From: an uncultured Candidatus Sumerlaeota bacterium
GTDB lineage: Bacteria; Sumerlaeota; Sumerlaeia; SLMS01
Direction: 5' to 3'
Assembly (NCBI GenBank): GCA_964420455.1
Contig: CAYQTO010000004.1
Coordinates: forward strand, 5,385-69,384
Length of the DNA stretch: 64,000 nt
Shown: in pieces, positions 5,680 through 58,596 of the stretch
Position numbering within the stretch: the stretch's first letter is position 1
Layout: every line of letters starts with the position of its first letter
The notes under the pieces: model-generated
The model's input: the letters and a program-made list of their open reading frames with translations, nothing else
What the model was told of the DNA's origin: nothing
The model's database searches: none
Translations under genes and position numbers: made by a program

Positions 5680-8600
5680 GCCTTCACGGAGGCTGCCTGA
5701 ATCTCCGCAAGGTAGTTGCGGATTTCCGACTCCGGTTCCGGCCGCCTCATCAGGAACCCCTGGACGAAGTCGCAGCCGTACTCCCTTACGCGGGCGAGTT
5801 GCTCCTCGTTCTCGATCCCCTCGGCGATGGTCGAAAGGCCGAGGGCGCTCGAGAGGCTGGCGACCGCGGGGAGGATCAGCGCCGACTTGTCCTCCGCCGA
5901 CAAGGCATCCACAAATGCCCGGTCGATCTTCACCGTGTCGAGCGGCAGCCGGTGCAGATAGTTCAGGGAGGAGTAGCCGGTCCCAAAGTCGTCTATACAG
6001 ATGGAGACACCCTGGTCGCGCAGTTGCCCGAGGATGGCGATGGAGACCTCCGGATGGGCCATGAGGACGGTTTCGGTGATCTCGAGCTTGAGTGCGCCGG
6101 GATTGCACCCGGTGCGCTCGATGATCGTGCGGAGGTCCTCCGCGAGCCCCGTCTGGTTGAGCTGGCGTCCGGAGATATTTACGGCCATGAACCGGCCGTG
6201 AATCAGGTCTGGAAACTCCTGTTCCCATCGGCGCAGGGCTGCGCAGGCTTTCTCGAGAACGAGGAGCCCCACCGGCAGGATGACGCCTGTTTCCTCGGCC
6301 AGGGCGATGAAGTCCGCGGGGGAGATGCGTCCCCGCTCGGGGTGGTTCCATCGGACGAGAGCCTCGAAGCCGGCCAGCTCCAGCGTGGCCGTGTGGTAGA
6401 GCGGCTGGAAGTGGACGTCGAACTCCTGGCGTTCGAGCGCCCGGTGGAGGTCCGACTCGAGATCGAGCAACTCCTGGACATCGTCGCGCATGGAGCGGTC
6501 GAAGACGATGTGGCGGGCCCGGCCACCGTCCTTCGCCCGATACATGGCCGTGTCCGCGTCCCGAAGGATTTCTTCAGGCCGCTCGTAGCCGGCGCTGCTG
6601 AAGGCGATCCCGATGCTTGCGCTCGTATAGATCTCCTTCCCTTCGACGAGGAAGGGGCGGGCAAGCTCCTTGTGGAGCCGTTCGGCGATCATGCGGGCCT
6701 CCCCCGGGAGCCGGAGGTCCTCCACCAGGATCGCGAACTCGTCGCCACCGAGGCGTGCAAACAGGTCGCTCGGCCGGAGGATCCGTTGGAGCCGTTCGGC
6801 GATCTCCACCAGCAGGCGGTCGCCCACGAGGTGACCGAGGCTGTCGTTCACGACCTTGAACCGATCAAGGTCGAGGAACAGCACCGCGAAGAGGTAGCCG
6901 GGAAGTCGGGCGGAGCGGTTGAGGGCGTGCTCGAGGTGCTCGAGAAAGAGCGAGCGGTTGGCAAGGTTCGTCAGGCTGTCGTGCATCGCCTCGTGGTAGA
7001 GGCGTTCCTCGGCGAGGCGCCTCTCGGTCACGTCACGGAGGGATCCGGCGATGCGCACCGGCTGGCCCGTGGGCGAGAAGACCGCCACCCCCCGGCAGAC
7101 CATCCAACGGTACTGGCCGTCGCCGCACCGGATGCGGTGCTCGCTCTCGAAGTGAGGGGTCTCCTTCGCCAGATGCTCCTGGAGCTTGTGGTCCACCTCG
7201 GGACGATCCTCCGGGTGGATGCGGTCGAGCCAGACTTCCGGCGGGGACCAGGCGTCCTCGTCGGTGAGGCCGATCATCTCCTGCCAACGGGGCGAGAAGT
7301 ACATGGAGTTGGTCTCGAGGTTCCAGTCCCAAAGACCATCGTTGGCGCCCCGTGCGGCGAGGGCATAGCGCTCCTCGCTGACACGAAGGCGGCGGTCCGC
7401 CCGCTTGCGGTCCGTCACGTCGTTGGCAATCAGCTGGAGTGCCGGTGCGCCCTCGTACAGGACCGGGATCGCAACAGCCTCGAGGTCGAGGGCCTGGCCA
7501 TCGCTCCGCACCAGTTGAAAATCCTCGAACTCGGGCCGGAGGACCGGGCTGGAGTTCGCCGCCCGCGCAAGGAACTGCTGCCATCGGTTGAGCGCCCCTT
7601 CCGATGGCCACCACTGCACCCGCGACAGGTCGAGTTCCTCGGGGCCGCCCACGCCAAAGAGGCGGTGGCCCGCTCCGTTCAGATAGACAAGGCGGCCGGC
7701 CTTCAGCACGGCGATGGCGAGGGGGGCCGCCTCCACGAGTTGGCGGTACCTGCGCTCGCTGATTTCCAAAGCCTCGCGGGCCGCCTCCAGCTCCGTCAGG
7801 TCCACATTCAGGCAGTAGAACTCGGGATCTCCCGAGGCGCCGGTCATCTTCAGGAAGTTGCTGAGGACGGTGACGCGGCGGCCGCTCTTGCCGACGATTT
7901 CCAGCCGCTCGCTCTGGATCGGCAGGTCGCGGTCCGCCCAGTCGCGAAGCGCTGAACGAAACACCTCGCGGTGCGTCCCCGGCAGGAGGAGCTCCTCAAA
8001 GGGGCGCCGCGAGGCCTCCTCCGCTGTATATCCATACAGCTCATGGCTGGCCTTGTTCCAGAAGGTCACGCGCCCCTCGCGATCCATTCCCTGGATGGCG
8101 ATGTTGGGCATCTGCTCGAAGAGCGTGCGGAAGCGGTTTTCGCTTTCCCGGAGGGCGGCGTTCGAGCGGAGCCGTTCGATTTCCGCGCCTGCCCTGTCGG
8201 CCAGCACCTCGAGGTACGGCAGGTAGTCCCTCGGCCGGGGGATTTCCTCGTCGTGCACAATGACCAGCAACCCATGCTTTTGGCCCTGGGAGTTCCAGAG
8301 TGGCATGCCCAGGTAGGCCTCCGCACCGAGATCCCTGAGCATCGCGTCGTGGGGGTAGAGCTTGCGGACGCCCCGCGGGTGGACACAAACGCCCCCCGTC
8401 AACACCGCCTGACAGGGGGTCCCTTCCAGATCGAACGAGAACGGCGGGAGCAACTCGTCGTTCGCGGCAAACGCGAGGACATTTACGCGGGTTCCCCCGA
8501 CGATCTCGCCCACCAGCCCGAACCGGGTTCCCACCGCGCGGGTTACCGCCACCACGAGGTTCTCGAAGAACTCCTTCCCGGTCGCCGCGGACGTGCTTTC

Positions 8601-17595: not shown

Positions 17596-20500
17596 ATGTC
17601 GCTTTCCAGCTTCGCCGTCAACGCGCCTGTCAAGGTCTCGATGATCTTCCTCGGGGTCCTGCTGCTTGGGTGGATTTCCCTCTCGCGGCTGCCGACCAAC
17701 CTTTTTCCGGACATTCGGGCGCCCAAAGTCACCGTCACCGTCACGACAAATGGCCTCAGCCCCGGCGAGGTCGAGCGGCGCATCAACGAGGTCATCGAGC
17801 GGTCCCTTTACTCGATTCGCGGTGTCCTCGACGTCCAGTCGATCGCCCGCGCGGACACAGCGGTTATCGTCGTCAACTTCACTTGGGACTCGAACCTCGA
17901 CTATGCGTTCCTCGAGGTAAAGAAGGCGGCGTCGGATCTCGAGCGGGATCGTTCCGACGAGATCGAATCGATCTCGGTCCTGCGCTATGATCCGAACGCC
18001 ATGCCGGTGGTGACGGCGGCCCTCCGGGCACCCGAGAGCATCGATCTGGAGGACGTCTACAAGACCGCGGAGCGCACGCTCAAGCCGCGCTTCGAGCGAC
18101 TCGAGGGAGTCGCCAATGTCGTGGTAACCGGCGGCCTCGAGCGCGAGATCCGCATCGATCTCGACGAACCGCTGCTCCTCGCCTACGATCTCAACGTCAG
18201 CACCGTCGTCTCGGCGATCCAGAACGACAATTCGGACGCGACCGGTGGCTGGGTCGAGGAAGGGCCGCGGCGCTACCTTTTGAAAGCCGCCGGGGAGTTC
18301 CGCAACATCGACGACGTCCGACGGGTGGTGGTCACAAGGCGAGGGAATTCGCCAATCCTTCTGGGCGACGTTGCCAACGTTTACTTCGCGCCGCGGGAGC
18401 CGAAGTCGCTCGTCTATCTAGATGGGGAGGCGGCCGTCGCCCTCGCCTTCTACCGCAGCCCGGAAAGCAACACCGTCGCCGTCGCCGAAGCCATTCGGGC
18501 GGAAATCGAGAACTCTGCCCGTGTCCTTCCGGATACCTGGCAGATGACGGTTGCCAACGACCAATCGACCTTCATCAGCGCCGCCATCCGCGAGGTCCGC
18601 AACAATGCCATCATCGGCGGTGTCCTCGCCATCGTGGTGATCCTCCTCTTCCTTCGCGACATCATCAGCACGCTGATTGTGGCGATCGCGATCCCGATCT
18701 CCATCGTGGCCACCTTCAACCTGATGTATTTCCAAGGCTTGTCGCTCAACCTGATGACGTTGGGGGGGCTCGCGCTGGGGACGGGTATGCTCGTCGACAA
18801 CGCGATTGTGGTACTCGAGAATATTTATCGCCTTTTGCAGACAGGAAGGGACCGGCGCGAGGCGGCCCGTCTCGGCGTGCGTGAGGTCGGCGGGGCCCTC
18901 GTTGCCTCGACGCTGACCACCGTCGCCGTCTTCCTGCCCATCGTCTTCGTGCGCGGCGTGGCAGGACTGCTTTTCCAGGAGCAGGCCCTCACCGTCGCCT
19001 ACTCGCTCCTCGGCTCGCTCGTCGTCGCCCTGCTGCTGATTCCCATGTTGTGTGCGTTCTTCCTTAACCGGCGGGGAACAATGATCTCGCCGGGCGAATC
19101 CTTCGACGTTCCACGAAACCCTTACACGATGATCCTTCGGCTCGCCCTGCGGCTACGTCTCTTGGTCGTGTTGGCTGCGGCCGGTTCCCTATATCTCGTG
19201 TATGTCTTTGTGCGGGATATTCCCCAGGAGTTCCTCCCGGCGACGGAATCGGACCAGGTCGCTGTCCGGGTTGTTCTTCCAAACGGCACGCCTATCGAGG
19301 CCACCGATGATCTGGTCCAATCGATCAACGGGCAACTCCGGCGTTTTGAACCCGCCCTCGAGTCGGTCCTCTCCCGCGTGGGTGAGCCCGAGGGGGTTGT
19401 TAATCCCAACACCCAGGATCCCGACGGCCCGAACACCGCCGACATCTTCGTCCGGCTCTTCAGTGGCGACGAGCCGACGACCGCAATCATCGAGCAGGGG
19501 CTGGTCGGCTTCTCCTCCTCCGACCTCATTGCAGGGTTGAAGCCGATCCTGGACCGCGTGCCGGACGCGAAGGTGGAGTTTCGATCGAACGAGGGGACGC
19601 TGATGGACCTGGTGGGTTCCGCCCGTGCCCCGCTCATTTTGGAGATCAGCGGCCCCGAGCTGACGACCCTCAAGGGGCTGGCGGAGGAGGCCCAACGCCG
19701 CCTGTCCTCCCTTCCCGAGCTTCGAAACGTCCGGACGAACATCCTCGAGGGGGCGCCCGAGGTCATGATTCGGCTGGACAAGGCCCAGTTGTCCCGCCTC
19801 GGGCTCGACGTGAGCGGCGTCGGCGGTATTCTCCGCCAGCGCATCGAAGGCGAGGTCGCGTCCCAGATCACCCAGGAGGCGGGCGACGTGGACTTGCGCG
19901 TTCAGGTTGATTACGGACGTGAGTCGCTCGATACCCTTCGAAATATTCTCATCAAGTCGAGCACCGGCGCGCTGATTCGGCTCGAGGCGGTGGCGGAGTT
20001 CGAGATCGTGCGCGCCCCGCGCGAGATCGTCCGCCGTGGCCAGGAACGCGTCGCTTTCGTCCTGGCGGACCTCGCCCCGGGCCTGCGTCTCTCCGAGGGC
20101 ATCGCCGCAGCCCAGGCCTCCGTCGACGACCTCCCCCTCCCACCCCGCTATCTCCTTCGCTTCACCGGAGAGGAGGAGCAGCGCCGTGATGCCTTTGGCG
20201 ACCTCGCCTTTGCCCTTCTCCTCAGCATCGCCCTCGTCTATATGGTGATGGCCTCGATCTTCGAGAGCTTCATCCAGCCGTTGCTCATCATGCTGACGAT
20301 TCCCCTCGCGGGGCTCGGTGTCGTTGCCGCGCTGCTTTCCACCGGCCAGACGTTTAATGTCATGTCGATCATCGGTATTGTGATGTTGGGCGGGATCGTG
20401 GTGAACAACGCAATCGTGCTCCTGGATTGCGTGAACCAGGTGCGCAGTTCCGCTCGCGAGGCGGGGGTCGGGATCGACCCCACCGACAGCCTTGTGCTGG

Positions 20501-21201: not shown

Positions 21202-22422
21202 CTAGCGAGACCGCAACCGCCGCACCAGCTCCGCCAGCCGCACCCACCCATCCTGGTCCCCAACCAACGACGAGGCATTGACCAGCAGCACCCCTCCGAC
21301 GTCTTCGAGGCTCCTCTCCATCGCCCGGTCCCACCCCTCGGCACCCAGGTCCACCGCCGCCCAGATGCTTCCGCTCGGTCGCACCCGCCTCGCCGCGGCA
21401 AGGCTGCCTTCGACGGATGCCCACCATGCGTAGCCAGCTTCCTCCGCCTCTGCGGCCGTCGTGAATCGCGGCTCCCAGAAGCCCAGAGCCACCGCATCCA
21501 CCAGATGCCCGGAGGCGGTGATGCCATAGTCGCGTGGGAGCCAGGGGAAGTCCGCCGCGAGATCGGCTTGGGGCAGGGCCCAGTTAAAGCCCTCACGCTG
21601 GTGGAAGGTATAGGGCGCATCAACGAGCAGCACTAGGCCCGGCGGCGCCCCGGACGGATGCGCCAATAGGGTCGCCTCCCGCACCCGCATCAGCCAGGTC
21701 CTGAGCAACGCCGCCCGCCACGCGGTCCACGCGGGCCACAGCGGCCCGGCCCCTTCGCCCCCTACAGGATGGAGCCGGGGGGCGGTGCCGAACACGTCCG
21801 CCGGCCACGAGCGAACGGATCGCCCCGACCAGGCAGCAAAATCCCGACGCGCGCCCGCCCCGGCATCCGAGGCCAAATCCCCAAAACCAGCGTTGGCCAG
21901 CACCAGCATATCCACCCCGGGATCGCGGAGTACCTCGCGGATGAGGGCGAGGGCCCGCCGTCTTGCCTCGTCCGAGGCGGGGGAGTACCACCGCACCCCG
22001 TCTGTCGTGGGAGGAGCGACCTCGTAGCCGTCTTCCGTCCAGATCGCGGACTGCCGGAGGTGCTCGCCGGGGGCATCGGGCGGTGCCAGCCAGGGGGAGA
22101 CGACGGCGGCCAGGAAAACCCCGGCCTCGCGGGCGTCCGCATACTTTTCCAAGCGGGGTGCAACCATCGTCCGTCCGTCCCCATCCTGCACCTCCACGGC
22201 AAGGTGGGTAATCCCCGCGACTCGCGCTGCGCGATAGAGTGCCTGTCGCATGGCAGGGTCGTTGGTCTGGGGGCCGAGGGTCTCCTCGTTGATCCAGAGC
22301 ACAGCGGGCGTATCGACGAGGGAGGGCGGCCGGGCGGCCGGTTCCGGGCCCAACGGGGCGACCGTCCTGCAGCCTGTGAGGCACGCGACGGTCACCGCCG
22401 CCAGCAGCCAGCGCCCCGTCAT
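21202..22422 (-). CDS. hypothetical lipoprotein (possibly TIM-barrel glycosyl-hydrolase-like)
   Basis: Trimmed to MTGRWLLAAVTVACLTGC (lipobox). An ATGA overlap joins it to the upstream C25-like gene. The family assignment is tentative. Confidence 0.55.
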   Translation of the reverse strand: MTGRWLLAAVTVACLTGCRTVAPLGPEPAARPPSLVDTPAVLWINEETLGPQTNDPAMRQALYRAARVAGITHLAVEVQDGDGRTMVAPRLEKYADAREAGVFLAAVVSPWLAPPDAPGEHLRQSAIWTEDGYEVAPPTTDGVRWYSPASDEARRRALALIREVLRDPGVDMLVLANAGFGDLASDAGAGARRDFAAWSGRSVRSWPADVFGTAPRLHPVGGEGAGPLWPAWTAWRAALLRTWLMRVREATLLAHPSGAPPGLVLLVDAPYTFHQREGFNWALPQADLAADFPWLPRDYGITASGHLVDAVALGFWEPRFTTAAEAEEAGYAWWASVEGSLAAARRVRPSGSIWAAVDLGAEGWDRAMERSLEDVGGVLLVNASSLVGDQDGWVRLAELVRRLRSR

Positions 22423-25400
22423 GGCGTCCCGTCGTCGTCTGTCGCCGAGGAGACACGCATGAGGCTGCCCTTGAGGGCGACGGCGAAGCTCGGGGCGAAG
22501 GTTTCCGCCTCCCGGGTTTCCTTGGGTGCCTTCCACTCGATCACTGCGGTCTCGCTCCCTTCGCCAGGAATCTCGTCCACGAGCACCTCGCCGATGAACG
22601 TCTCGTCGTTCTGCTCCGGAGCGGAGTAGAAGTAGACGGCAACGCGCCGGGCGGGGGTCTGGCCGAGATTTCGGACGGTCCCCCGGAGCACCACCGTGCC
22701 CGGGTCGCGACCTGGCTCGGCGACGAGACCTCCGAGGGCCAGGCGGCTCTTGGTGCGGACCTTCATCGGGATGAACGCCCTTTGGTTGGATCGGTCACGA
22801 TCCGGCCGCTGGAGCTTCGGGTCGATCTCGAGGGCAATCTCGTACTCCCCCGCATTGTCCACTGGGTCCCACCGAAGGGTGACAAGGCGCGATTCGCCAG
22901 GTAGCAACGGGGCGATGGTGGTGGCCTGGCGGGCGGTAAGGTCCCGGAGGGTGCGCCGCCCGCCGCCGTCGTCGCGAAAAAGCGTCGCGTCCACCGGCTC
23001 GGAAATCGTCTCCCCACGGTTCTCGACCACCGCGTCGACGAACACCGTCACGCCATCGCTGTGGGGCTGCGGTCGCGTGGTGATCTCGCCGGTGAGAGCC
23101 ACATCGGGAAGTCGCGACCGCTCGAAAACCGGGATCGATTCGCTCACGAGGGCGGATTGCCTGTCCGACGACCAGCCGCCCTCGAACTCCACAACCGCGG
23201 TCCGTAACGTTTCCCGGTCAACCTCGCCCGCAACGGAGATCGATCGCGACACACCGCTCATCAGCTGCACCGGGCCAAAGGTCTGGGTTCCTTTCATCTC
23301 GCCGTCGACAATCAGGCGCAGCGTCCCGGTGGTGTCGAGGGTCTCCGGTGAGATGTTGGCCACATGGATTTCTCCCCGGGCCCGGCGGCCTTCCACCGCG
23401 GGAAGAACCAGCGAGGGTCGACTCTTGTCGACGACCAGGCCGCCCCCATCGTCCGTGACCACGGCATGGGTCGTGGCGCGTCGGCTCGGCAGCTGCGCAC
23501 CAAGAAAGACCCCGCTGTCCGAGGGGAGTTCGTGCGTGATGGTGAACAGGCCGGCGGAGGTCGGGGACCAGGCGAACCGTTCAAGCAAGGCGGTTCGCGG
23601 GCCCACGCGAACTGGGCGCTCATCCGTATAGACGGTGTTTCCATTCCCGTCGCGCACCGTCGTCACAAGGCGGTCCGCCGCCGGACGACCATCGTCATTC
23701 TGGAGGAGGACGGAGACCTCGACGGGTTGGCCGGCCAGTTGGATTGTCCCCCCGATAACGTTCACTTCCCGGATCAGCAGGGGAACCGCCCCGGCGTCGG
23801 GATCCGGCAGCGCTTCGGCCCCGTCGCCCACCGGCGCGGGTGGGAACCGCAGGGTTGGATCCCCAAGCAGTAGAAACATCCGCGAGTGGTCGTCCGGGCC
23901 AATCTCCGCCTGATAGGCCAGGCGGACCAACTCCGCCAGGACGCCATGATGGCGCACGCCGAGGAGCGAACGCGCCCGGTAAAACGCATCGGCGAGGACA
24001 CTGTGACGGGTGACGTACCCCGGGCCGGAGGGCATGAAGCAGGCCACCGCACCGGACCCTTCGTGCCGGAGGAAGTCTTCCGCCAACGAGATGTTCCAGG
24101 GCTCGAGCGGATAATCGATCACCGCGTTGTTGCAGGTGAACGAGGCGACGAAGGAGAGGCGCCCGTTCGGTTCGAGACGGATCAGGTCGCTGTTGGGCGT
24201 GCCGCCCCCAAACCAGAACCGATGATTGCTCCAAAGGTTCGGCGCCCCGTGGCCGAAGAAGGCCACGGTTCCGGTACCCTCATTGAAAGCGGACTCGATG
24301 GCCGCGGTCATGAGGGGACTAACCTTGGAATCCTCCACGCGCCGGATGCGGTCCGGCGGGAGATAGTAGTTGTCCTCCCAGGGAAAGGAATCGGCAAGGA
24401 GCACCTCGTGGGGCGCGCCGGGTTGGAGGTTCTCGATGATTCCCGGTTCGAGGGCGGGAGCGAATTCGCGCGTGTCGAAGATGGTAAGGATGCGCTGGGG
24501 CCAGGATGCCGGGACATCCTGGCCTTGTCTATACATGAGGACGTTCGCCGCCGCCGCCCGCGCGTCCTCCACGGAATGGGCGGAGATCCGCCCGACCACA
24601 AGGTCTGCCACCTCGTCCTCGCCCACGAGCCAGCTGTAGACAGAGTCGGTGGAGAACTGGTCGCCGGAGGCGCTCAGGGTGGATTCCACGAGGGGGATCG
24701 GGATGTCGTTGGGGAGGCCAAGGCGCGCCACGTCGCGGCCGTCGCTCGTTGCATCACCCAGCAGCAGGACCGCCTCCGGGCGCCGGCCCGTCCAGTCGTT
24801 CACGGCGAAGGCCAGATAGTTCCGGATCCCCTCCCAGGACGTCTCGCCGTGGGAAAAGGAGGCATAGACGGAGTCGACGGGAGTGCTCGCCACAACATAT
24901 CCGTCTGTCTCCATGGAGGCTGCAAGCTCCCTGGCGACTTCCTCGAAACGCGGATGATAGAGGACGATGGCGTCGGCACCGCGGTTGGGATCGTCGAGGG
25001 AAAGATAGGCGGCCGGGATGGGGGATGGTGCGCGGTCGATACGGCGGGTCTCGGCGGCAAGCCACACGCCAGCGGGATCGAGAGTTCCCGCGAGGACGAG
25101 GCGCCCCCGTTCGACCTCGGCAGGAAAGCGCGCGGGAAGGTCCGGGTTGGTCAGGTCCAGCGCGAGGACTTCCCCCCGCAGCCCCGTCAGCGCGAGAGCC
25201 TGCGCGCCCCGGTATTCCGGATTTCGCCGCCCTTCAAGGCGTACCACTCCATCCTTCGCCTGGAGGATGCCGGCGTATTCGATCTCGGCATGGTCCAGAT
25301 AGACGCGGCCACGCGCGCCATCGGAAGACTCCGCGGCCGTGCCCCCAATCCGAAGCTGCAGGCTGTTGCGGGCGGCGCGGAGGATCGCCGTCGGCAGGTC

Positions 25401-26696
25401 CACCGTATAGACGGTCTCCCGTGGCAGGAGCTGCAACTCCTCCAGTGTTTGCCCATTAAGCGTCGGCGCGAGCGTGGCTCCCCCGGGGGGTGGCTGTTCG
25501 TAATGCAGCGTGATGGTTGCTGTGGTGGTGGCGTCGCCGTCGCGGGGGACAAAGCCCGGCAGGTCGAACTCCACATTGACCGGCTCGAGCGGCGCCAGCG
25601 CCTTCCAAAGCCAGCGCATGTTGCGGATGGAAAGAAAGGCGCCGAGTTCCTTGAGGAATTCGTTGTCTTCTTCGAGGAGCACGGCGCGGCGGGCAAAAGC
25701 CGTGGGCGCGGGCGCCTCGTTGACGGGAGGAGCGACCCATGGCTCCGGACCTCCGCCTCCCGCCCGGCCCCCGAGGTAGTACACCCGGACCCGGGTCTCC
25801 GGGGAATCGTTGGCCTGAGCGTGGAAGACAAGCCGTGCCCCGTCGCCAAAGCCACCCTCCATCTCTCCCACACGAAACAGCGGAACACGGGTGCCGCGGG
25901 AGTAGAGGACAAGGTTGGCAGGGTCGATGGCGTCCGGGTCCAGGCCGGCCTCTGTCAGCCACGCAGCATCGATCGCCACGAGGCCGTCCTGTTCGATGCC
26001 GAGGCGCTGCCAGGGGATCAGTGGAGAGTCTTCCGGCCGCGGCTGCCATTGTGTGGGGCCTGGAAACGGATTGGGAGGCGGCGGCCTGAGGTGCGGGCGC
26101 CATGCCTCGGGGGAGGGGGCCGCAACGAGTCGCGACGCGATCCTTGGAAACAGGCGGTCGCCTAGCACAGGAGGGGTTAGGATCGTCTCGTTCGACGGGA
26201 CGGGGTCATGCCTCACATGGATCGTGTAGGAGGCGTATTCGAAGGACTCGTTGCCGACCGTAATGGAGCGGCGGGAGTCGACCGACAGTTTGGCAAGTGG
26301 CAGAGAGCGGAGCCAACCCATGGGCTCCAGGGTGACCGCGCGGCGGAAAGGGACGAGAACCGAGGGGATGAGGGCCTCGCCGTCCTCGATCGCAGGGCGC
26401 TCCTCGCCGGTCAGGCGATGGCGGAGAACAAGTTCACGAACCTCAAAGTCCAGTTCGCCCGGCGGGGCCGGAAAAACGAAGGTCTCCTTTTCCCGGTGCC
26501 GTGGGTCGAGCGCCTTGCGGATTTCGATCGAGGTGGGTGTCACCCGGACGAAGTCCGCTGGCGAAAGAACCGTCAGCGCGGGCCGTCCCTCGAACAGCGG
26601 CTCCGGGGGCGGCGCAACCACCGTCGTCCGGCGACAACCGGCGAGCAGGGCCACAAGGACAAGAGGTAGGAGCAGGAGGAGACGCGTCATACGCAT
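22419..26696 (-). CDS. giant lipoprotein with a peptidase C25 (gingipain/clan CD)-like domain and C-terminal CARDB/Ig-like repeats
   Basis: Trimmed to MRMTRLLLLLPLVLVALLAGC. C25-like blocks: VLLLGDATSDGRD...IPIPL...SDQFSTDSVY...ADLVVGRISAHSVEDA, then the His/Cys dyad context AFFGHGAPNLW ... FVASFTCNNAV. Confidence 0.75.
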   Translation of the reverse strand: MRMTRLLLLLPLVLVALLAGCRRTTVVAPPPEPLFEGRPALTVLSPADFVRVTPTSIEIRKALDPRHREKETFVFPAPPGELDFEVRELVLRHRLTGEERPAIEDGEALIPSVLVPFRRAVTLEPMGWLRSLPLAKLSVDSRRSITVGNESFEYASYTIHVRHDPVPSNETILTPPVLGDRLFPRIASRLVAAPSPEAWRPHLRPPPPNPFPGPTQWQPRPEDSPLIPWQRLGIEQDGLVAIDAAWLTEAGLDPDAIDPANLVLYSRGTRVPLFRVGEMEGGFGDGARLVFHAQANDSPETRVRVYYLGGRAGGGGPEPWVAPPVNEAPAPTAFARRAVLLEEDNEFLKELGAFLSIRNMRWLWKALAPLEPVNVEFDLPGFVPRDGDATTTATITLHYEQPPPGGATLAPTLNGQTLEELQLLPRETVYTVDLPTAILRAARNSLQLRIGGTAAESSDGARGRVYLDHAEIEYAGILQAKDGVVRLEGRRNPEYRGAQALALTGLRGEVLALDLTNPDLPARFPAEVERGRLVLAGTLDPAGVWLAAETRRIDRAPSPIPAAYLSLDDPNRGADAIVLYHPRFEEVARELAASMETDGYVVASTPVDSVYASFSHGETSWEGIRNYLAFAVNDWTGRRPEAVLLLGDATSDGRDVARLGLPNDIPIPLVESTLSASGDQFSTDSVYSWLVGEDEVADLVVGRISAHSVEDARAAAANVLMYRQGQDVPASWPQRILTIFDTREFAPALEPGIIENLQPGAPHEVLLADSFPWEDNYYLPPDRIRRVEDSKVSPLMTAAIESAFNEGTGTVAFFGHGAPNLWSNHRFWFGGGTPNSDLIRLEPNGRLSFVASFTCNNAVIDYPLEPWNISLAEDFLRHEGSGAVACFMPSGPGYVTRHSVLADAFYRARSLLGVRHHGVLAELVRLAYQAEIGPDDHSRMFLLLGDPTLRFPPAPVGDGAEALPDPDAGAVPLLIREVNVIGGTIQLAGQPVEVSVLLQNDDGRPAADRLVTTVRDGNGNTVYTDERPVRVGPRTALLERFAWSPTSAGLFTITHELPSDSGVFLGAQLPSRRATTHAVVTDDGGGLVVDKSRPSLVLPAVEGRRARGEIHVANISPETLDTTGTLRLIVDGEMKGTQTFGPVQLMSGVSRSISVAGEVDRETLRTAVVEFEGGWSSDRQSALVSESIPVFERSRLPDVALTGEITTRPQPHSDGVTVFVDAVVENRGETISEPVDATLFRDDGGGRRTLRDLTARQATTIAPLLPGESRLVTLRWDPVDNAGEYEIALEIDPKLQRPDRDRSNQRAFIPMKVRTKSRLALGGLVAEPGRDPGTVVLRGTVRNLGQTPARRVAVYFYSAPEQNDETFIGEVLVDEIPGEGSETAVIEWKAPKETREAETFAPSFAVALKGSLMRVSSATDDDGTP

Positions 26697-26723
26697 GGCC
26701 GGAGAGTATAGGGCGGTGCTACC

Positions 26724-26736
26724 GCAGTGACCGCAA
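26724..26736 (-). promoter_or_regulatory. TTGCGGTCACTGC box 27 nt upstream of the C25-like gene start (variant of the TTGCGTCACTG box)
   Basis: The minus strand reads TTGCGGTCACTGC, followed by ggtagcaccgccctatactctccggcc and then ATG (26696). It differs by one extra G from the boxes at 28215 and 57660. Confidence 0.3.
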
Positions 26737-26809
26737 GCGCCAACGTAAGGGCTCATCGCGTCTCAGAAGACACACGGTGAACGGCTGGGGTTTATCCGCG
26801 GGGGAGCGA

Positions 26810-28102
26810 TCAGGCGGTCGAAAGCATGTCCATCGAGCGGGAGACTTTCTCGATAGCTTCCAGGGCCTGCTCGAGCTGGGCACGCGCATGGGTCGCCATG
26901 ACGCTGAGCCGGATCAGCGACCGGGTGGAGGGCGTCGCCGGAGGGACGACCGGGTTGACGAACACACCCGCATCATGGAGTGCCCGCCAGAAACGGAAGC
27001 AGTCCTCGACGGATCCAATAACCAGAGGAATGATCGGCGACTGGGAGGCACCGGTATCGAGCCCCATCCCCTTGAGTTCGTGATGAAGAAACCGGGTATT
27101 TTCCCAGAGACGCTGGATACGTTCGGGCTCGCTGATCATGATTTCAATGGCGGCCCGGGCGGCGGCGACACAGGCGGGGGCCATCGAGGCGGAGAAAATC
27201 AACGCGCGGGCGTGGTGCTTCAGATAGTCGATCACGTCGCGGTCGGCGGCGACGAACCCGCCGATGGAGGCGAGGGACTTTGAGAAGGTCCCCCCGATCA
27301 AGTCCACCTGATCGCTGAGGCCAAAGTGATCCGCCGTGCCGTTGCCGGTCCGACCGAGAACGCCGATCGAATGCGCGTCGTCGACGAGGATCGCCGCCCG
27401 GTGCTTTTGGGCCACCTCCACAATCTCCGGAAGGCAGACGATGTCTCCCTCCATCGAGTAGACGCCGTCCACGACCACCATCTTCCCGCCGGAGGGGGCC
27501 TTCGCCATCATACGGTCCAAATCCTGGGCATCATTGTGCTGAAACTTGTGGACCTTGCCAAAGCCCAGGCGCGCTGCATCCACGATCGACGCGTGGTCCG
27601 TCCGATCGATAAAGAGGTGGTCCTCCCGGGAGGCCAGCGCGGCAATGGCTCCAAGGTTTGCCTGGTAGCCGGTTGTGAAGACAAGGGCGGCATCCTTTTC
27701 CATCAGGTCCGCGATCATCTCCTCCAGCTCGACGTGGATGCTCAGGGTACCGTTCAGGAACCGGGACCCGGCACAGCCGCTCCCGTACTCGTCGACGGCC
27801 CGCTTCGTGGCTTCCTTGATGCGCGGATCGTTCGTCAGGCCGAGGTAGCTGTTCGACCCCATCATGAGCATTGGCCGACCATCGATGACGACCTCGGTGT
27901 CCTGGGCCGATTCGATCGTGCGGAAGTACGGATACAGGCCGAGCGACCGCATCTCCTCCGCCCGGGTGAAACGGGCGCACTTCTCCAGAATCGGCGAGGT
28001 CGCCGCAGACTTTCCAACGGCTGCCGGGGTTACTTCGCCCTCCCAACGGGAATCGATAAACGAGGATCCGTTGTCGTTGGTCCCGTTGAGAATCTGACTC
28101 AT
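26810..28102 (-). CDS. PLP-dependent alpha-oxoamine synthase, serine-palmitoyltransferase-like
   Basis: 430 aa. Shows GSNSYLGL, DGVYSMEGD, VDDAHSIGVLG and the PLP-lysine block GGTFSKSLASIGGFVA. LIFSASMAP and the C-terminal PPATP... resemble bacterial SPT more than BioF/Kbl, judged from recalled sequences. Confidence 0.8.
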   Translation of the reverse strand: MSQILNGTNDNGSSFIDSRWEGEVTPAAVGKSAATSPILEKCARFTRAEEMRSLGLYPYFRTIESAQDTEVVIDGRPMLMMGSNSYLGLTNDPRIKEATKRAVDEYGSGCAGSRFLNGTLSIHVELEEMIADLMEKDAALVFTTGYQANLGAIAALASREDHLFIDRTDHASIVDAARLGFGKVHKFQHNDAQDLDRMMAKAPSGGKMVVVDGVYSMEGDIVCLPEIVEVAQKHRAAILVDDAHSIGVLGRTGNGTADHFGLSDQVDLIGGTFSKSLASIGGFVAADRDVIDYLKHHARALIFSASMAPACVAAARAAIEIMISEPERIQRLWENTRFLHHELKGMGLDTGASQSPIIPLVIGSVEDCFRFWRALHDAGVFVNPVVPPATPSTRSLIRLSVMATHARAQLEQALEAIEKVSRSMDMLSTA

Positions 28103-28418: not shown

Positions 28419-29990
28419 ATGCGGGGAAACGTGACGCCCATGATGAGTGATGCCCACAGCCTCGTGCAACGCCCTCCCGACCGGGCAGCGCTGGTTGTCC
28501 TCGGGGCCGACAGCCCCCAGCTCCGTGCCGCCCCCCAGTGGTTCCTTCATCGCCTCGGCATCCGTGCAAAGTTGCCGATCCCGTTGCATGCGGGGCGCCC
28601 CGATGGACTCGGGGCACTTGGCGACCTTGCTTCCGACGTCGATCGCCTTAAATGCCCGATTTCCGATGCGATTGTTGAACTTCAAGGTGAGGGAGATCCA
28701 ACGCAGATAACCGTTCTGGTGCAGGCGCGCCCCTCCGCCGGCGGGACCTTCGACCGACGCGCCGCCGTGGAAATGTTGTTGGACGACGTCACCGATGTCG
28801 TCCGGGAACGCCGCCGTGCCCTTGGCGTGGGGTCCTTCCATGGCCTTGTCGGGCGCTCTTTCGCGATGATCGAGGTTTATCAGAAGATCGCCACCTACGG
28901 CCCCACGGAGGCGCCGATCCTCATCACCGGCGAGACGGGGACGGGAAAGGAACTGGTCGCCCGTGCCCTCCACGAGCGGTCCGCCCGCGCCGGCGGGCCC
29001 TTCGTCGCCGTCAACTGCAGTGCGCTTACTTCGGAACTCTTCGAAAGCGAACTGTTCGGCCACGAAAAGGGATCCTTCACCGGTGCCTATCGCCAGCACA
29101 AGGGGCGCTTCGAGCGGGCTGACGGAGGGACGTTGTTCCTCGACGAAATCGGGGACATGCCGCTGATGAGTCAGGCGAAGATGCTGCGGACTCTTGAGGA
29201 AGGGGTGATCGAGCGAGTCGGCGGCGAGGCCGAGCGCCATGTAGACGTTCGCGTCGTCGCCGCGACCAACGTCGCCCTCGAACAGGCGGTCACCATTCGG
29301 CGTTTTCGCGCAGACCTCTATCACCGCATTTCGGTTCTGCGGGTGCATGTGCCCCCCTTGCGCGAGCGGACCGACGACATCCCCCTGCTGGTCGATCACT
29401 TCCTCGCGACCTTCAACCGTCGCTACAACAAGACCATCCGCCGTGTCACACCCGAGGCGCTGCGGATTCTGTCCGAGTACTACTGGCCGGGTAACATCCG
29501 CGAGTTGCGCAATGTCATCGAGAGACTGGTTGTCGAGGCAAACTCCGACGCGATCGGGGGGCAGGCCTTGCGCGGCTGGCTCCGCGAGCGTGAGTACCTC
29601 ATGCCGGGTGCCTGGAACGCGGATTCCGCCGACACCCCCCGCCGGCCGATTTACACCTCCGGGCCCGATGAGGAAGAACTTGGCCCCGCGCTTTCCGGTT
29701 CACCCCGGTTTGGCAACGCGTTCTGGGGGACTGTCGCCGGGGCCCCGCCGCTGTTCTCCAAACCGGCGGAAATCGGCACCGATCCCGCCACGTCTCCGCG
29801 GACGACCCAGGAGACCAATCCTGAGGAAACCGTCGACCTCACCGTCGAGACAATCCGCACGGCCTATCGCAACGCCTCCGGCAACCTGACGAAGGCCGCC
29901 CGTCTCCTGGGGGTGCACAAGGCGACGCTTTACCGTCATATGAAGCGCCTCGGCCTCACGCGCGAGGCGCTCGAGGAGGAAGCGACGTGA
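28419..29990 (+). CDS. sigma-54-dependent transcriptional activator (bEBP): unassigned N-terminal domain, AAA+ core, long low-complexity linker, Fis-type HTH
   Basis: Walker A GETGTGKELVARALH; sigma-54 contact loop variant GHEKGSFTGA; Walker B GGTLFLDEIGDM; C-terminal HTH NLTKAARLLGVHKATLYRHMKRLGL. The start is uncertain (ATG at 28419, 28440 or 28443). Confidence 0.9.
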   Translation: MRGNVTPMMSDAHSLVQRPPDRAALVVLGADSPQLRAAPQWFLHRLGIRAKLPIPLHAGRPDGLGALGDLASDVDRLKCPISDAIVELQGEGDPTQITVLVQARPSAGGTFDRRAAVEMLLDDVTDVVRERRRALGVGSFHGLVGRSFAMIEVYQKIATYGPTEAPILITGETGTGKELVARALHERSARAGGPFVAVNCSALTSELFESELFGHEKGSFTGAYRQHKGRFERADGGTLFLDEIGDMPLMSQAKMLRTLEEGVIERVGGEAERHVDVRVVAATNVALEQAVTIRRFRADLYHRISVLRVHVPPLRERTDDIPLLVDHFLATFNRRYNKTIRRVTPEALRILSEYYWPGNIRELRNVIERLVVEANSDAIGGQALRGWLREREYLMPGAWNADSADTPRRPIYTSGPDEEELGPALSGSPRFGNAFWGTVAGAPPLFSKPAEIGTDPATSPRTTQETNPEETVDLTVETIRTAYRNASGNLTKAARLLGVHKATLYRHMKRLGLTREALEEEAT

Positions 29991-30316
29991 GCAGCTATTC
30001 GGCGGGGGAGCGTGAGCTGGTTGAATTGCTGGAAAACTCCGCAGGCCAATGGACCCTTGTTCTGCTTGGCGAGCCCTGGCACCCGGGCACCGGCACGATG
30101 TCGCAGCGCCTGCGCGAGCACGGCCGAGCCATGGAGGCGCGTCTCATCGAGCTCCCGCTTGCGTCGTACAGCGACTGGGCGCGCGGGCATGGTGTCGTGG
30201 CCGTACCGACAACGCTGGTCTTTCGAGGACCCCGTCTTGTTGGCCGCATCCCCGGTATTCTTGAGGAGCAGGAGGTCGGAGACATCCTGGCGCGGTTCGC
30301 TCTCGAATCCAGCTGA
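29987..30316 (+). CDS. thioredoxin-fold protein lacking the CxxC active site
   Basis: 109 aa with a GTG start in a GTGA overlap with the activator's stop. WHPGTG replaces WCGPC. The cis-Pro region VVAVPTTLVFRGPRLVGRIPG is conserved. Confidence 0.55.
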   Translation: MSSYSAGERELVELLENSAGQWTLVLLGEPWHPGTGTMSQRLREHGRAMEARLIELPLASYSDWARGHGVVAVPTTLVFRGPRLVGRIPGILEEQEVGDILARFALESS

Positions 30317-30349
30317 GCGAGCCGATCCCCTTCAACTCTCCGCGGAAGC

Positions 30350-30381
30350 AGAAAAGGGGGGCGACATCGCCGCCGCCCCCC
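30350..30381 (-). terminator. intrinsic terminator downstream of the hsp20 pair
   Basis: The minus strand reads GGGGGGCG-gcggcgatgt-CGCCCCCC followed by TTTTCTGCTT. The 8-bp GC stem is at 30356..30363 / 30374..30381. Confidence 0.65.
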
Positions 30382-30412
30382 TCCTCGCGCCACGATCAGG
30401 ATGGCTTGTCTG

Positions 30413-30862
30413 TCAGCTGACTGCGACGGTGATCTTGCGGGGCTTCGCCTCTTCGGCGAAGGGAAGGCTGACGTTGAGGACGCCATTGCGATACGCGGCG
30501 GCGACACGGGACTGGTCGATCTTGCGACCGAGGCGGAACTGGCGGAAATAGCCAACAGGCCGGTGTTCGCGATACAGGTAGTCCTCGTCTACGGTGGCCT
30601 TGGCGGGAGTGCCGCGCAAAGTCAGCACGTCGTTCTCGACCGACAGCTCCACGTGATCCTGCTCAAGGCCGGGCATGTCGGCGGCGATATAGAGACCGTC
30701 TTCCTTCTCATAGATGTCGACGGCGGGGCTGACGTAGCGCTCGGGCTCGTGGGTCTGCTCGGTCCGTTCGGCGATGGCGGTGTTCTGTTCGTTCGTCGTG
30801 GGGACGGTGTTCTCTGGCATGGGTCTGTCTACTTTGGTCGGGTTGATGGTGGAGGGGTTCAT
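30413..30862 (-). CDS. small heat-shock protein (Hsp20/alpha-crystallin family)
   Basis: 149 aa. Alpha-crystallin domain PAVDIYEKEDGLYIAADMPGLEQDHVELSVENDVLTLRG ... NGVLNVSLPF. Confidence 0.9.
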   Translation of the reverse strand: MNPSTINPTKVDRPMPENTVPTTNEQNTAIAERTEQTHEPERYVSPAVDIYEKEDGLYIAADMPGLEQDHVELSVENDVLTLRGTPAKATVDEDYLYREHRPVGYFRQFRLGRKIDQSRVAAAYRNGVLNVSLPFAEEAKPRKITVAVS

Positions 30863-30865
30863 GGT

Positions 30866-31318
30866 TCAGGCGACGGCTACGGTGATCTGGCGGGGCTTGG
30901 CCTTCTCGGCCTTGGACAGGTGAACCCGAAGGACGCCGTTTTTGTACTCGGCGGAGACTTTGGACTCGTCGATTTCGACAGGAAGCGTCAGCGTGCGAAC
31001 GAATTTGCCGGCGGCACGCTCGGAACGATGGACGTTTTCCCGCGCCACCTCCGAGGGGATGCCCGTCTTTTCGCCGCTGATCGTCAGTTGGTTGCGCTCG
31101 ACGCTGACGTCGAGGCTTTCAGGGTTCAGACCCGGAGCGACCGCCTCCACATGGAGAGCGTCGTTATCGCCGGTCATGTTCAGCAGCGGGTAGCTGCGGG
31201 GGTTTTGCCCGGGCAGAAAGCCGAGCGGGTTGCGGGAGCCACGGCGGACCGCGTCGAGGGCACGGTCGATATCGCGGCGGAGGGCGTCGAACTCGGTGAA
31301 GGGATCGAACTGGAACAT
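30866..31318 (-). CDS. small heat-shock protein (Hsp20/alpha-crystallin family)
   Basis: Trimmed to MFQFDPFTEFDALRRDIDR..., with GGAGGA 6 nt upstream. Shows LHVEAVAPGLNPESLDVSVERNQLTISGEK ... NGVLRVHLSK. Lies 3 nt upstream of the second hsp20. Confidence 0.9.
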   Translation of the reverse strand: MFQFDPFTEFDALRRDIDRALDAVRRGSRNPLGFLPGQNPRSYPLLNMTGDNDALHVEAVAPGLNPESLDVSVERNQLTISGEKTGIPSEVARENVHRSERAAGKFVRTLTLPVEIDESKVSAEYKNGVLRVHLSKAEKAKPRQITVAVA

Positions 31319-31377
31319 GGTCGTTCCTCCGGTTGGGGATGCGCCCACTCGGGGCGTTGCAGTCGCCAAAGGAGAAG

Positions 31378-31392
31378 TCAAAATGCCTGCCA
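31378..31392 (-). promoter_or_regulatory. candidate sigma-54 (-24/-12) promoter for the hsp20 operon
   Basis: The minus strand reads TGGCAG-GCATT-TTGA against the consensus TGGCAC-N5-TTGC. Spacing is correct, with two mismatches including the -12 C. It lies 60 nt upstream of the ATG at 31318. Confidence 0.4.
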
Positions 31393-31410
31393 GCACTGGG
31401 GCGGTGATTC

Positions 31411-31486
31411 GCGTCGCAATCGGCTGATAAAGCGTCGCAGAGGAGCGATTCGCACCGCTTCGACGTCGCAGGCGGACGTCGCAATG
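31411..31486. promoter_or_regulatory. array of four CGTCGCA repeats (candidate enhancer/UAS or operator) between divergent promoters
   Basis: The four copies are GCGTCGCAAT (31411), GCGTCGCAGA (31432), TTCGACGTCGCA (31459..31470, an 11/12 palindrome) and GACGTCGCAAT (31476). GATTCGC also occurs twice (31405, 31446). Confidence 0.45.
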
Positions 31487-31533
31487 CCGCCCTGAAGAGC
31501 AACGGAAGGCCCCACCTTCTTTTCAGATGAATA

Positions 31534-31549
31534 TGGCACGCATCTATCT
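31534..31549 (+). promoter_or_regulatory. candidate sigma-54 (-24/-12) promoter for the Zn-metallopeptidase gene
   Basis: TGGCACG-CATC-TATC. The -24 element is perfect and the -12 element is poor (no GC). It lies ~30 nt upstream of the ATG at 31579 and resembles the hsp20 element (TGGCAsGCATyT). Confidence 0.35.
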
Positions 31550-31578
31550 TTAAGGAAGGCAGCCGCAGAAGGCGGCCC

Positions 31579-32277
31579 ATGTCTGATGACGAGGTGACAA
31601 CAGCGATGCTTTACTTTGCCGGTCTTGGAATCCTGCTGATTTTCAGCCTTTGGGCGCAGTGGTCGGTAAAGTCTGCTTACGGCAAGTATTCGAAGATACG
31701 GGGGAGCAGCGGCCTGACAGGAGCAGAGGCGGCCCGGGAAATGTTGAGTCGTGCCGGCATTGCCAATGTTGGAATCGAGGCGACCCGTGGCATGCTGACG
31801 GACCACTACGACCCTCGCAAGAAGGTCATCCGCCTTTCGGAGGGCGTCTACAACTCGTCGAGCCTCGCCGCGGTTGGAATCGCCTGCCACGAGGCGGGAC
31901 ACGCGGTGCAGGACGCCCGCAACTATACTCCGCTCGTGATCCGCAACGCCGCGGTACCGATGGCGAGCTTCGGCTCGAACACCGCCTTCATCCTGATTTT
32001 CGTCGGCCTGCTGTTGAACTCGCTCGGGATGGCGGTGATCGGCCTCGTGCTGTTTGCAGGCGTGGTGTTCTTCCAGTTGGTAAACCTGCCGGTGGAGTTC
32101 AACGCTTCGGCGCGCGCCAAGGAAGCCCTGGTAAATTACGGGATCGTATCGCCCGGTCGGGAAGCCGAAGGCGTCTCGAGCGTGCTGAACGCCGCCGCGA
32201 TGACTTACGTTGCCGCGACCGCGACCGCGGTGTTCCAGCTCCTGTACTTTCTCATGATCGTTCTCAACCGGCGCTGA
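31579..32277 (+). CDS. membrane zinc metallopeptidase (YugP / Zn_peptidase_2 family)
   Basis: 232 aa. N-terminal TM segment, HEAGHAVQ zinc motif, C-terminal TM segments. Matches the pattern LWAQWSVKSAYGKYSKI...LTGAEAAREML typical of YugP-like proteins. Confidence 0.8.
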   Translation: MSDDEVTTAMLYFAGLGILLIFSLWAQWSVKSAYGKYSKIRGSSGLTGAEAAREMLSRAGIANVGIEATRGMLTDHYDPRKKVIRLSEGVYNSSSLAAVGIACHEAGHAVQDARNYTPLVIRNAAVPMASFGSNTAFILIFVGLLLNSLGMAVIGLVLFAGVVFFQLVNLPVEFNASARAKEALVNYGIVSPGREAEGVSSVLNAAAMTYVAATATAVFQLLYFLMIVLNRR

Positions 32278-32295
32278 AGCGGGGTGGATCGCACC

Positions 32296-32324
32296 TTGAC
32301 AGACACCCGGCTTCCTGACTGAAT
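32296..32324 (+). promoter_or_regulatory. candidate sigma-70-type promoter (TTGACA-17 nt-CTGAAT)
   Basis: Perfect -35 TTGACA at 32296..32301, a 17-nt spacer, and a -10-like CTGAAT at 32319..32324 (4/6 to TATAAT). Confidence 0.35.
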
Positions 32325-32462
32325 CGAATCTGCATCAGGAGCGAGCCCCCTCAACCGGGGCTCCGGCAACCGGACGAGGCAACACGGTGCCAAGGGCATT
32401 TTGCCCGATGTGCGGAGGCAACACCTCCGAATCGCCTCCCTCCCGCCGCCCAAGATCGCTCG

Positions 32463-41156: not shown

Positions 41157-41170
41157 GTGCGACGTCGCAC
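41157..41170. promoter_or_regulatory. perfect 14-bp palindrome GTGCGACGTCGCAC upstream of clpB (candidate operator/UAS)
   Basis: The sequence is self-complementary. A further half-site CGTCGCA lies at 41202..41208, and an inverted repeat GGATTC-N5-GAATCC at 41186..41202. Confidence 0.5.
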
Positions 41171-41213
41171 GGGCCAGAGCGGGGTGGATTCCCTTCGAAT
41201 CCGTCGCATACTC

Positions 41214-41228
41214 GGGCACGTTTTTCGG
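41214..41228 (+). promoter_or_regulatory. weak sigma-54-like element upstream of clpB
   Basis: GGGCACG-TTTT-TCGG. The -24 half is good and the -12 half is poor. It lies 40 nt upstream of the ATG at 41268. Confidence 0.25.
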
Positions 41229-41267
41229 TCCTCCTTTTTTCATCCAATTCCTTGAGTGAGGTGGAGA

Positions 41268-43901
<2,634 letters not shown>

Positions 43902-54667: not shown

Positions 54668-54702
54668 GATCACCACTTCAGCGGCCTCCTGCGACGTTGG
54701 TT

Positions 54703-58566: not shown

Positions 58567-58596
58567 TTCACGTCCTTCAGGGCACGGTCATTCCTC

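Follow-up and report, generated by a model that had tools for sequence, protein, structure and literature searches.

In Escherichia coli, the divergent sigma-54 promoters of zraP and zraSR share activator sites; ZraR is a two-component regulator of zinc and envelope stress with a receiver (REC) domain, and ZraP is periplasmic. Control of stress-protection or heat-shock genes by sigma-54 and bacterial enhancer-binding proteins (bEBPs) is also represented by PspF, HsfA and the sigma-54 system of Chlamydia: PspF, which has no sensor domain, is restrained by PspA, HsfA belongs to the response regulators, and in Chlamydia sigma-54 is secondary to control by HrcA. The small heat-shock protein (sHSP) gene ibpB of E. 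coli has a sigma-54 promoter (Kuczynska-Wisnik et al. 2001, cited in PMC2831329), a canonical TGGTAA-N5-TTGCT; the operon is additionally under sigma-32 control, and no dedicated enhancer is known to serve ibpB. A 2025 survey of Planctomycetota and Bacteroidota with position-specific scoring matrices reports sigma-54-type promoters enriched at genes for GroEL, IbpA/COG0071, DnaK/DnaJ/GrpE, COG0542 (Clp ATPases) and Lon; Sumerlaeota are outside its coverage, and in its passages searched the predicted promoters are canonical and no activator, enhancer motif or YugP-like peptidase is named (PMC12316311). Here we describe a locus on a 64,000-nucleotide stretch of contig CAYQTO010000004.1 (GCA_964420455.1) of an uncultured Candidatus Sumerlaeota bacterium, hereafter the window, in which a 260-bp spacer (31319..31578) separates a leftward pair of hsp20-type sHSP genes, hspA and hspB, from a rightward gene for a YugP-like membrane Zn-metallopeptidase. 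On the evidence of its sequence and that of its relatives, this spacer is probably a bidirectional, enhancer-dependent control region of a Sumerlaeota protein-damage (heat-shock) regulon.

The locus resembles zraP-zraSR in having putative shared activator sites within a short spacer, a stress chaperone on one arm and an activator gene in the neighbourhood, but its candidate activator has a PAS fold and no REC domain, its predicted targets are cytoplasmic sHSPs, a membrane peptidase and ClpB, its site motif is unrelated, and its -12 elements are without GC. With ibpB it has in common an sHSP gene preceded by a sigma-54-type promoter (PMC2831329), whereas here the sigma-54-type elements are the only recognisable promoters and extend to clpB and the peptidase gene as well. 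None of the PspF, HsfA and Chlamydia systems has CGTCGCA sites or an sHSP-peptidase-ClpB module as its target, and a search of the literature on heat-shock regulation in Sumerlaeota found nothing. A first-pass annotation of the window, which had proposed divergent sigma-54-type promoters around a shared repeat array, did not recognise a module of this form. That judgement holds for the enhancer word, for the regulon core (sHSP pair, YugP-like peptidase and ClpB), for the PAS-bEBP and thioredoxin-like pair as candidate regulator and for the consistent non-GC -12, all of which are new, but not for sigma-54 at chaperone genes as such, which the 2025 survey had already predicted; relative to the passages searched in that survey, it is the enhancer motif, the candidate activator and the systematic non-GC -12 that the present locus adds, and our own scan of Planctomycetota peptidase loci agrees with it (PMC12316311). 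The proposed layout itself is favoured by all the computational tests that we ran, namely conservation, recurrence at clpB, rank in a sigma-54 position weight matrix (PWM) scan and the canonical promoter of the corresponding module in another lineage.

Both TGGCA-type elements that the first-pass annotation had reported in the spacer are present, the minus-strand one occupying 31392..31377, and the sequences and coordinates of all features are collected in Table 1. The predicted transcription start sites (TSSs) lie near 31366 for hspA-hspB, giving a leader of about 48 nt, near 31560 for the peptidase gene and near 41240 for clpB. We scanned the window with a hand-made PWM that approximates the published sigma-54 consensus and whose scores are to be read as relative only; the hsp and peptidase sites ranked second and third in 128 kb of strand, each scoring only about 10.8 bits because the GC at -12 is missing. 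The pattern TGGCASGCATYT, defined post hoc from these two sites, occurs twice in the window, both times in the spacer, against 0.03 expected. As candidates for a canonical sigma-54 promoter elsewhere in the window, the top PWM match at 41374, inside clpB, and a match at 17433, inside a minus-strand open reading frame (ORF), were judged spurious. A further site that resembles the hsp20 promoter in type, TGGCACCTCTACTGAT (GG-N10-GA; 58552..58567, plus strand), is found some 150 nt before a GNAT/CN_hydrolase gene (58703..60259), with no CGTCGCA repeats close by. Taken alone, the window would leave the promoter calls tentative.

Between the two elements lies an array of CGTCGCA repeats. Of the four copies first reported, those at 31412, 31433 and 31464 are exact, and the fourth begins at 31477 instead of 31478; the 11/12 palindrome reported with them is TTCGACGTCGCA at 31459..31470, one mismatch from TGCGACGTCGCA. 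CGTCGCA is rarer than chance in the window (11 copies on both strands versus 18.3 expected), and 7 of the 11 copies fall into two clusters, one in the spacer and the other in the 130 bp that precede clpB, at a distance of 9.7 kb. A motif scan, which the first-pass annotation had suggested along with the PWM scan, placed TGCGACGTCGCA in the same two regions: allowing up to two mismatches, there are 2 matches in 64 kb versus 6.3 expected, both at these heat-shock promoter regions. At clpB, GGGCACG-TTTT-TCGG begins six nucleotides beyond the CGTCGCA copy. Repeats and promoter element thus occur together at the spacer, in two directions, and at clpB, so that the signature marks three transcription units, all of them concerned with proteostasis. 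The only other hexamer cluster in the Sumerlaeota loci is inside an AcrB-family transporter gene of the window (18435..18485).

We then compared the locus with related Sumerlaeota. The order hsp20-hsp20 (minus strand), divergent from Zn_peptidase_2 and clpB (both plus strand), was found in four related loci (L087/L091, L088, L089 and L090), with a methyltransferase gene inserted before clpB in L088; as L089 and L090 are near-identical, these amount to three independent relatives. The peptidase and clpB form one operon in the relatives, and clpB has therefore been displaced in the window, keeping its own copy of the signal. Across five aligned orthologous spacers the mean column identity is 54%, and invariant columns are concentrated in TCAA-N5-CTGCCA, CGTCGC and TGAAT-TGGCAC. 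Three blocks, and only these, are conserved in spacers that have otherwise diverged. The hsp20-side block, TGGCA(G/A)-N5-TTGA, is kept in L087, L088, L089 and L090; the central block consists of GCGACGTCGC followed by TGCGACG (5-6 copies in L088) together with an AAAGCGT(T/C)GCA copy; and the peptidase-side block reads GAATATGGCAC-N5-TTCC, or GAAT(A/G)TGGCAC-N5-TTCC, with a wider form, GAAT(A/G)TGGCAC-N5-T(T/A)(C/T)C, kept in L087-L090 and in L001. In L001, which holds the closest Sumerlaeota peptidase (59%), the element is AGGCACG-ACTC-TTTC-T at 5885..5900 (plus strand), 60 nt upstream of the gene.

The same signature recurs where clpB stands alone. In L212 and L213, and in L088 behind the methyltransferase gene, GCGACGTCGC(A) lies 40-65 nt upstream of TGGCATG or GGGCACG, and the clpB promoter of the window aligns with TGGCATGAATTTCGTC (L212), TGGCATGTTTCTCGAC (L213) and GGGCACGATTCTGGTC (L088). 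In L215, where hsp20-hsp20-clpB is co-directional, four direct CGTCGCA repeats are followed by TGGCACAAACCCTGTA. At least three CGTCGC/GCGACG hexamers are tightly clustered at these promoter regions in every Sumerlaeota module locus, the repeats being more widely spaced in L213 and L215. With a generic sigma-54 PWM, the promoter sites take first place in the entire locus in L088, L089, L091 and L215. We collected 16 promoters across the clade (hsp, peptidase and clpB sets). All 16 have GG at -25/-24 within a TGGCAC-like element (TGGCAG for hsp, TGGCAC for the peptidase, GGGCAC for clpB), and in every one the spacing from this element to the downstream T-rich element is the exact -24/-12 geometry. 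Leaders measured from the predicted TSSs are also consistent per gene class, those of hsp20 being about 47-71 nt long and those of clpB about 26-37 nt.

The repeats are conserved along with the promoters. Measured from the predicted TSSs, repeat centres in the window lie at -48 to -113 on the hsp side and at -80 to -145 on the peptidase side; in L087 and L089 a single cluster lies at -76 to -88 and -59 to -71, about equidistant from both -24 elements; and for clpB the range is -65 to -93 in the window, L212 and L213. Overall, the centres are mostly at -59 to -145 and are conserved with the promoter in L087-L090, L212, L213 and L215, a geometry that is typical of enhancers, whose sites usually lie about 70-150 bp before the start site, and would suit such a function.

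Orthologous genes of other lineages carry recognisable sigma-54 promoters as well. In six loci from unclassified and 'Gemmatimonadota'-labelled metagenome-assembled genomes (MAGs; L002-L006 and L019), hsp20-(hsp20)-peptidase(-clpB) forms one co-directional operon, located at about 4700..5200 of each locus, and the best PWM match per locus is the canonical TGGCACGC-N4-(C/G)TGCT, 60-110 nt upstream of the first hsp20 gene. These promoters are preceded by another dyad pair, TGCCA-N3-TGGCA/TGACA, and the different dyads suggest a different bEBP for the same module. We also considered TGGCAG...TTGAC of the window as a half-site of the TGCCA-N3-TGACA dyad of L002-L019, which it matches at 7 of 10 positions; this was rejected, the element being kept as a -24/-12 pair in Sumerlaeota. 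In Planctomycetota, YGGCRCR-N4-TTGC lies 65-115 nt upstream of the peptidase gene in eight loci, and among the peptidase loci scanned a PWM match of at least 10 bits was found in the 430-nt upstream window in 15 of 80, versus 4.3 expected.

A candidate activator is encoded 1.4 kb from the spacer. The first-pass annotation had assigned a sigma-54 activator to this gene, and the Pfam matches agree: Sigma54_activat (PF00158, E 1.5e-67), AAA_lid_14 and HTH_8 (E 3.4e-5). Its L1 loop reads GSFTGA, of the GAFTGA type, and is invariant in 20 orthologs, and the recognition helix GVHKATLYRHMK of its C-terminal Fis-type helix-turn-helix (HTH, at about residues 470-523) is near-invariant among them. The protein has no receiver domain, and residues 1-140 have no Pfam match; the AlphaFold2 model of this part (pLDDT 86.8) shows a PAS fold with a C-terminal J-alpha-like helix, and the best Foldseek matches of the N-terminus are short LOV/PAS proteins (E 6e-6, TM about 0.62, 13-16% identity). 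No flavin-binding LOV signature (GxNCRFL) was seen in the bEBP sequence. The 20 full-length orthologs (53-60% identity) share the PAS domain, with an APRWL motif, and a W-x2-ERE(Y/F)-x2-PG-x-W segment.

The bEBP stop codon is overlapped by a small thioredoxin-like ORF in which W/F-H-P-G replaces CxxC and no cysteine is conserved. Such an overlapping ORF directly follows every bEBP ortholog examined (L081, L083, L084 and L091), and its product is therefore possibly a regulatory partner of the activator. Gene order in the window is C25 peptidase and aminotransferase, then, divergently, bEBP, the small ORF and hsp20-hsp20, and, divergent from these, the peptidase; L091 shares this order except for a PLD gene that separates hsp20 from the small ORF. 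A Peptidase_C25/CARDB protein (1445 aa) and a class I/II aminotransferase (window 22419..28102, minus strand) are constant divergent neighbours of the bEBP operon (L081, L083 and L091). Autoregulation of the bEBP was considered and rejected, as the sequence before the bEBP gene contains neither a repeat cluster nor a conserved TGGCA element in any of the window, L081, L083, L084 and L091. The element TGGCAATGCTTTTCCA at L083 5719..5734 (plus strand; GCA_964269675.1), with a peptidase-type TTCC -12, lies 280 nt upstream of the bEBP ortholog; no counterpart precedes the bEBP gene of the window, L081 or L091. The gene adjoins the module in both the window and L091, and its HTH helix and the repeat motif are co-conserved across the same genomes; we consider the chances slightly better than even that this neighbouring PAS-AAA+-HTH protein is the cognate activator of the repeats.

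From these features we infer sigma-54 dependence, an enhancer function of the repeats, the identity of the activator and the nature of the inducing signal, and propose the following mechanism. Sigma-54 RNA polymerase would wait in closed complexes at the two divergent -24/-12-type promoters, of which TGGCAG-N5-TTGA would drive hspA-hspB leftward and TGGCACG-N4-TATC the YugP-like Zn-peptidase gene rightward. A bEBP would occupy the CGTCGCA / GCGACGTCGC repeats, centred about 50-145 bp from each start site, form an AAA+ ring, loop to both polymerases and open the promoters by ATP hydrolysis, and an identical enhancer-plus-promoter unit would drive clpB. The most likely activator would be the PAS-AAA+-HTH protein, possibly modulated by its co-transcribed, redox-inactive thioredoxin-like partner; under proteotoxic or heat stress it may oligomerise on the CGTCGCA sites, perhaps freed by the thioredoxin-like partner or by titrated chaperones.

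Several findings weigh against this mechanism. GC at -13/-12 is present in 0 of the 16 promoters, a deficiency that the first-pass annotation had already cautioned about for the two in the spacer; absolute PWM scores are modest; no rpoN was found in the 64-kb window; and the 130-bp spacer of L001 has no CGTCGC repeats and no hsp20 neighbour. The usual site of a Fis-type HTH dimer is a dyad of 14-20 bp, unlike the 12-bp palindrome and the 7-bp direct repeats with their irregular spacing (21, 31 and 13 bp), and the repeats at clpB of the window (CGTCGCA, -35) and of L088 (palindrome, -35 to -47) are too near for a usual looping enhancer. GCA_964269675.1 has the hsp module on one contig and the bEBP block, PLD gene included, on another, and in L081 and L084 the genes that lie downstream of the bEBP ortholog are unrelated ones. 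Regarding the -12 element, bases 13-14 after the GG are GA in hsp promoters (GT in L215), CC or TC in peptidase promoters and GG, GT or GA in clpB promoters, and within each gene class one of the two -13/-12 bases and the T at -15/-14 are kept. The non-GC -12 is conserved within the gene class and is therefore constrained, not decaying. A 2025 in-vitro library study of Pseudomonas putida sigma-54 RNA polymerase reports both TTGAAT and TTGCAT as -12 motifs, the latter prevailing among the strongest templates (PMC11997794), and at least TTGA of the hsp type is therefore a weaker but accepted variant. By their sequence, the sites would resemble sigma-54 promoters in behaviour but are not canonical members, and it is most likely that both spacer elements are sigma-54 promoters fired from a shared enhancer.

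Even with sigma-54 promoters and an enhancer, the cognate activator could be another bEBP of the genome, with the neighbouring PAS-bEBP controlling something else and its proximity being inherited synteny. This is somewhat unlikely but deserves serious weight, as hsp20 is not among the constant neighbours of the bEBP, which are instead the C25 peptidase, the aminotransferase and the thioredoxin-like ORF, the repeats form no cluster near the bEBP gene, and the two blocks are split between contigs in one genome; on the other side stand its adjacency to the module in two diverged genomes, the joint conservation of HTH helix and repeat motif, and the PLDc gene, which flanks hsp20 in L087 and L089 and the bEBP operon in L083 and so suggests one ancestral block. 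A different account would make the CGTCGCA / GCGACGTCGC sites operators of a dedicated heat-shock repressor, or of a classical non-bEBP activator, after the manner of HrcA-CIRCE or HspR-HAIR. The clpB copies at -35 to -47, which in the window and L088 abut the -24 element, keep this reading alive, and a short perfect palindrome common to all heat-shock units, as with CIRCE and HAIR, and the irregular spacing of the direct repeats fit it too. We nevertheless find it improbable, in that most copies are clear of the promoter, at 59-145 bp upstream of the start site, in L087 and L089 the sites lie at equal distances from both divergent promoters, none of the loci has an evident repressor gene close to the module, and scans of the window gave 0 matches to CIRCE at up to three mismatches and a single match to HAIR, inside a gene and at chance level.

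The hsp20-side TTGACT/TTGAAA/TTGAGA could also be read as the -35 element of a sigma-70 or sigma-32-type heat-shock promoter, with TGGCA as a regulator site. CTTGAAA in L087 is identical to the -35 consensus of E. coli sigma-32, and TTGACT matches TTGACA at 5 of 6 positions. Such a promoter is very improbable here, however, given that no conserved -10 element follows TTGAxx and no -10-like hexamer (TATAAT or CCCCATNT) occurs at 13-18 bp in any of four genomes, that a sigma-70 scan found no promoter in 29900..32400, that TTGA is absent from the peptidase and clpB promoters, which do keep TGGCAC, and that the spacing from TGGCA to TTGA is invariant, as -24/-12 geometry requires. As for chance resemblance in a GC-rich spacer, the PWM scores in the window are weak, CGTCGC is a frequent hexamer in GC-rich DNA, and when metagenomes were scanned with the 17-base core GCGACGTCGCNTGCGACG the result was at least 120 unrelated GC-rich loci, with hsp20, peptidase or clpB at none of the matches listed; this pattern is too common in GC-rich DNA for the scan to be informative. 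Orthologous conservation in at least four independent genomes, recurrence at clpB and the clustering statistics effectively refute chance, the conservation in relatives being the decisive support. A more far-reaching version of the sigma-54 mechanism, which we regard as a long shot, would have the Sumerlaeota sHSP-sHSP-peptidase-ClpB module run wholly by sigma-54, the PAS-bEBP and its thioredoxin-like partner, with neither sigma-32 nor repressor control; the crippled -12, in which G or C is kept but never both, would weaken the fork-junction lock and make open-complex formation sensitive to temperature or melting, so that the promoter would be part of the thermosensor.

We also considered regulation through the leaders. 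An RNA-thermometer reading of the hsp20 and clpB leaders was rejected, with weak z-scores (-1.6 and -2.2) and structures that are not evidently conserved; the leaders 31310..31376 (minus strand) and 41220..41278 (plus strand) do hold CUCCUUU-type stretches able to pair with the Shine-Dalgarno (SD) sequence in SD-occluding hairpins, that of clpB lying mostly upstream of its predicted TSS. At Rfam gathering thresholds, no ROSE or other thermometer was found in the window. The only Rfam hit was a 6S (SsrS) RNA gene at 54683..54864 (plus strand; RF00013, 69.9 bits, full-length match).

Table 1 Features of the window discussed in the text, with coordinates in the window and the basis of each assignment.
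Feature	Position	Strand	Basis
Predicted sigma-54-type promoter of hspA-hspB, TGGCAG-GCATT-TTGA-C, reads TGGCAGGCATTTTGAC	31377..31392	-	Sequence and conservation
Predicted sigma-54-type promoter of the peptidase gene, TGGCACG-CATC-TATC-T, reads TGGCACGCATCTATCT	31534..31549	+	Sequence and conservation
Predicted sigma-54-type promoter of clpB, GGGCACG-TTTT-TCGG-T	41214..41229	+	Sequence and alignment with relatives
Putative enhancer-like array, four CGTCGCA copies (positions in text) and partial TCGCA at 31450	31412..31483	+	
Second putative enhancer-like site, upstream of clpB: perfect palindrome TGCGACGTCGCA (41158..41169) and CGTCGCA (41202..41208)	41158..41208	+	
Candidate activator bEBP gene: PAS-fold N-terminus, AAA+ sigma-54 interaction domain, Fis-type HTH	28419..29990	+	Pfam, AlphaFold2, Foldseek
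Small thioredoxin-like ORF lacking CxxC; overlaps the stop codon of the bEBP gene	29987..30316	+	Weak Thioredoxin_2 match (E 0.018)
hspB, second sHSP gene	30413..30862	-	Pfam HSP20 (E 2.7e-18)
hspA, first sHSP gene	30866..31318	-	Pfam HSP20 (E 4.7e-23)
YugP-like membrane Zn-metallopeptidase gene	31579..32277	+	Pfam Zn_peptidase_2 (E 1.1e-85)
Terminator-like hairpin just 3' of hspB	30360..30374	-	Consensus scan: GGCGGCGATGTCGCC, then T-rich tail
clpB disaggregase gene	41268..43901	+	Pfam Clp_N, AAA, AAA_lid_9, AAA_2, ClpB_D2-small

The identities of the flanking genes as an hsp20 pair and a YugP-like peptidase, and the 260-bp length of the spacer, agree with the first-pass annotation. The ORF list extends hspA to a GTG at 31396 (176 aa), in which case the promoter would fall within the coding sequence; given the GGAGGA SD sequence and the MxxxFDP N-terminus, which are kept in relatives together with the start codon, the true start is taken to be the ATG at 31318. 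A search for identical hspA on other contigs returned just one 2-kb fragment (Logan) of the same sequence, and the 150-aa form of hspA seems unused in the public record, since the exact protein was found in that fragment alone. For the peptidase gene, an alternative ATG at 31606, after GAGGTG, is perhaps the truer start; homologs align from residue 11 or 20 on. ClpB of the window is 76-80% identical to ClpB of Candidatus Sumerlaeota MAGs, and the nearest matches of the peptidase and the bEBP are no closer than about 60% identity. Related MAGs are GCA_020848155.1, GCA_964269675.1 and GCA_020444065.1.

These results offer a concrete model for the protein-damage response of an uncultured candidate phylum. 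It consists of a putative enhancer word, CGTCGCA / GCGACGTCGC, the three transcription units that would be its targets, and a PAS-bEBP as candidate one-component sensor. They also tie the poorly understood YugP-like Zn-peptidase to sHSPs and ClpB as a conserved module, apparently co-regulated, in at least two deep lineages; in Planctomycetota, the peptidase alone also shows sigma-54-type promoters. The natural series of promoters that have no GC at -12 would be useful for learning what influence the -12 element has on activator dependence and on basal leakage.

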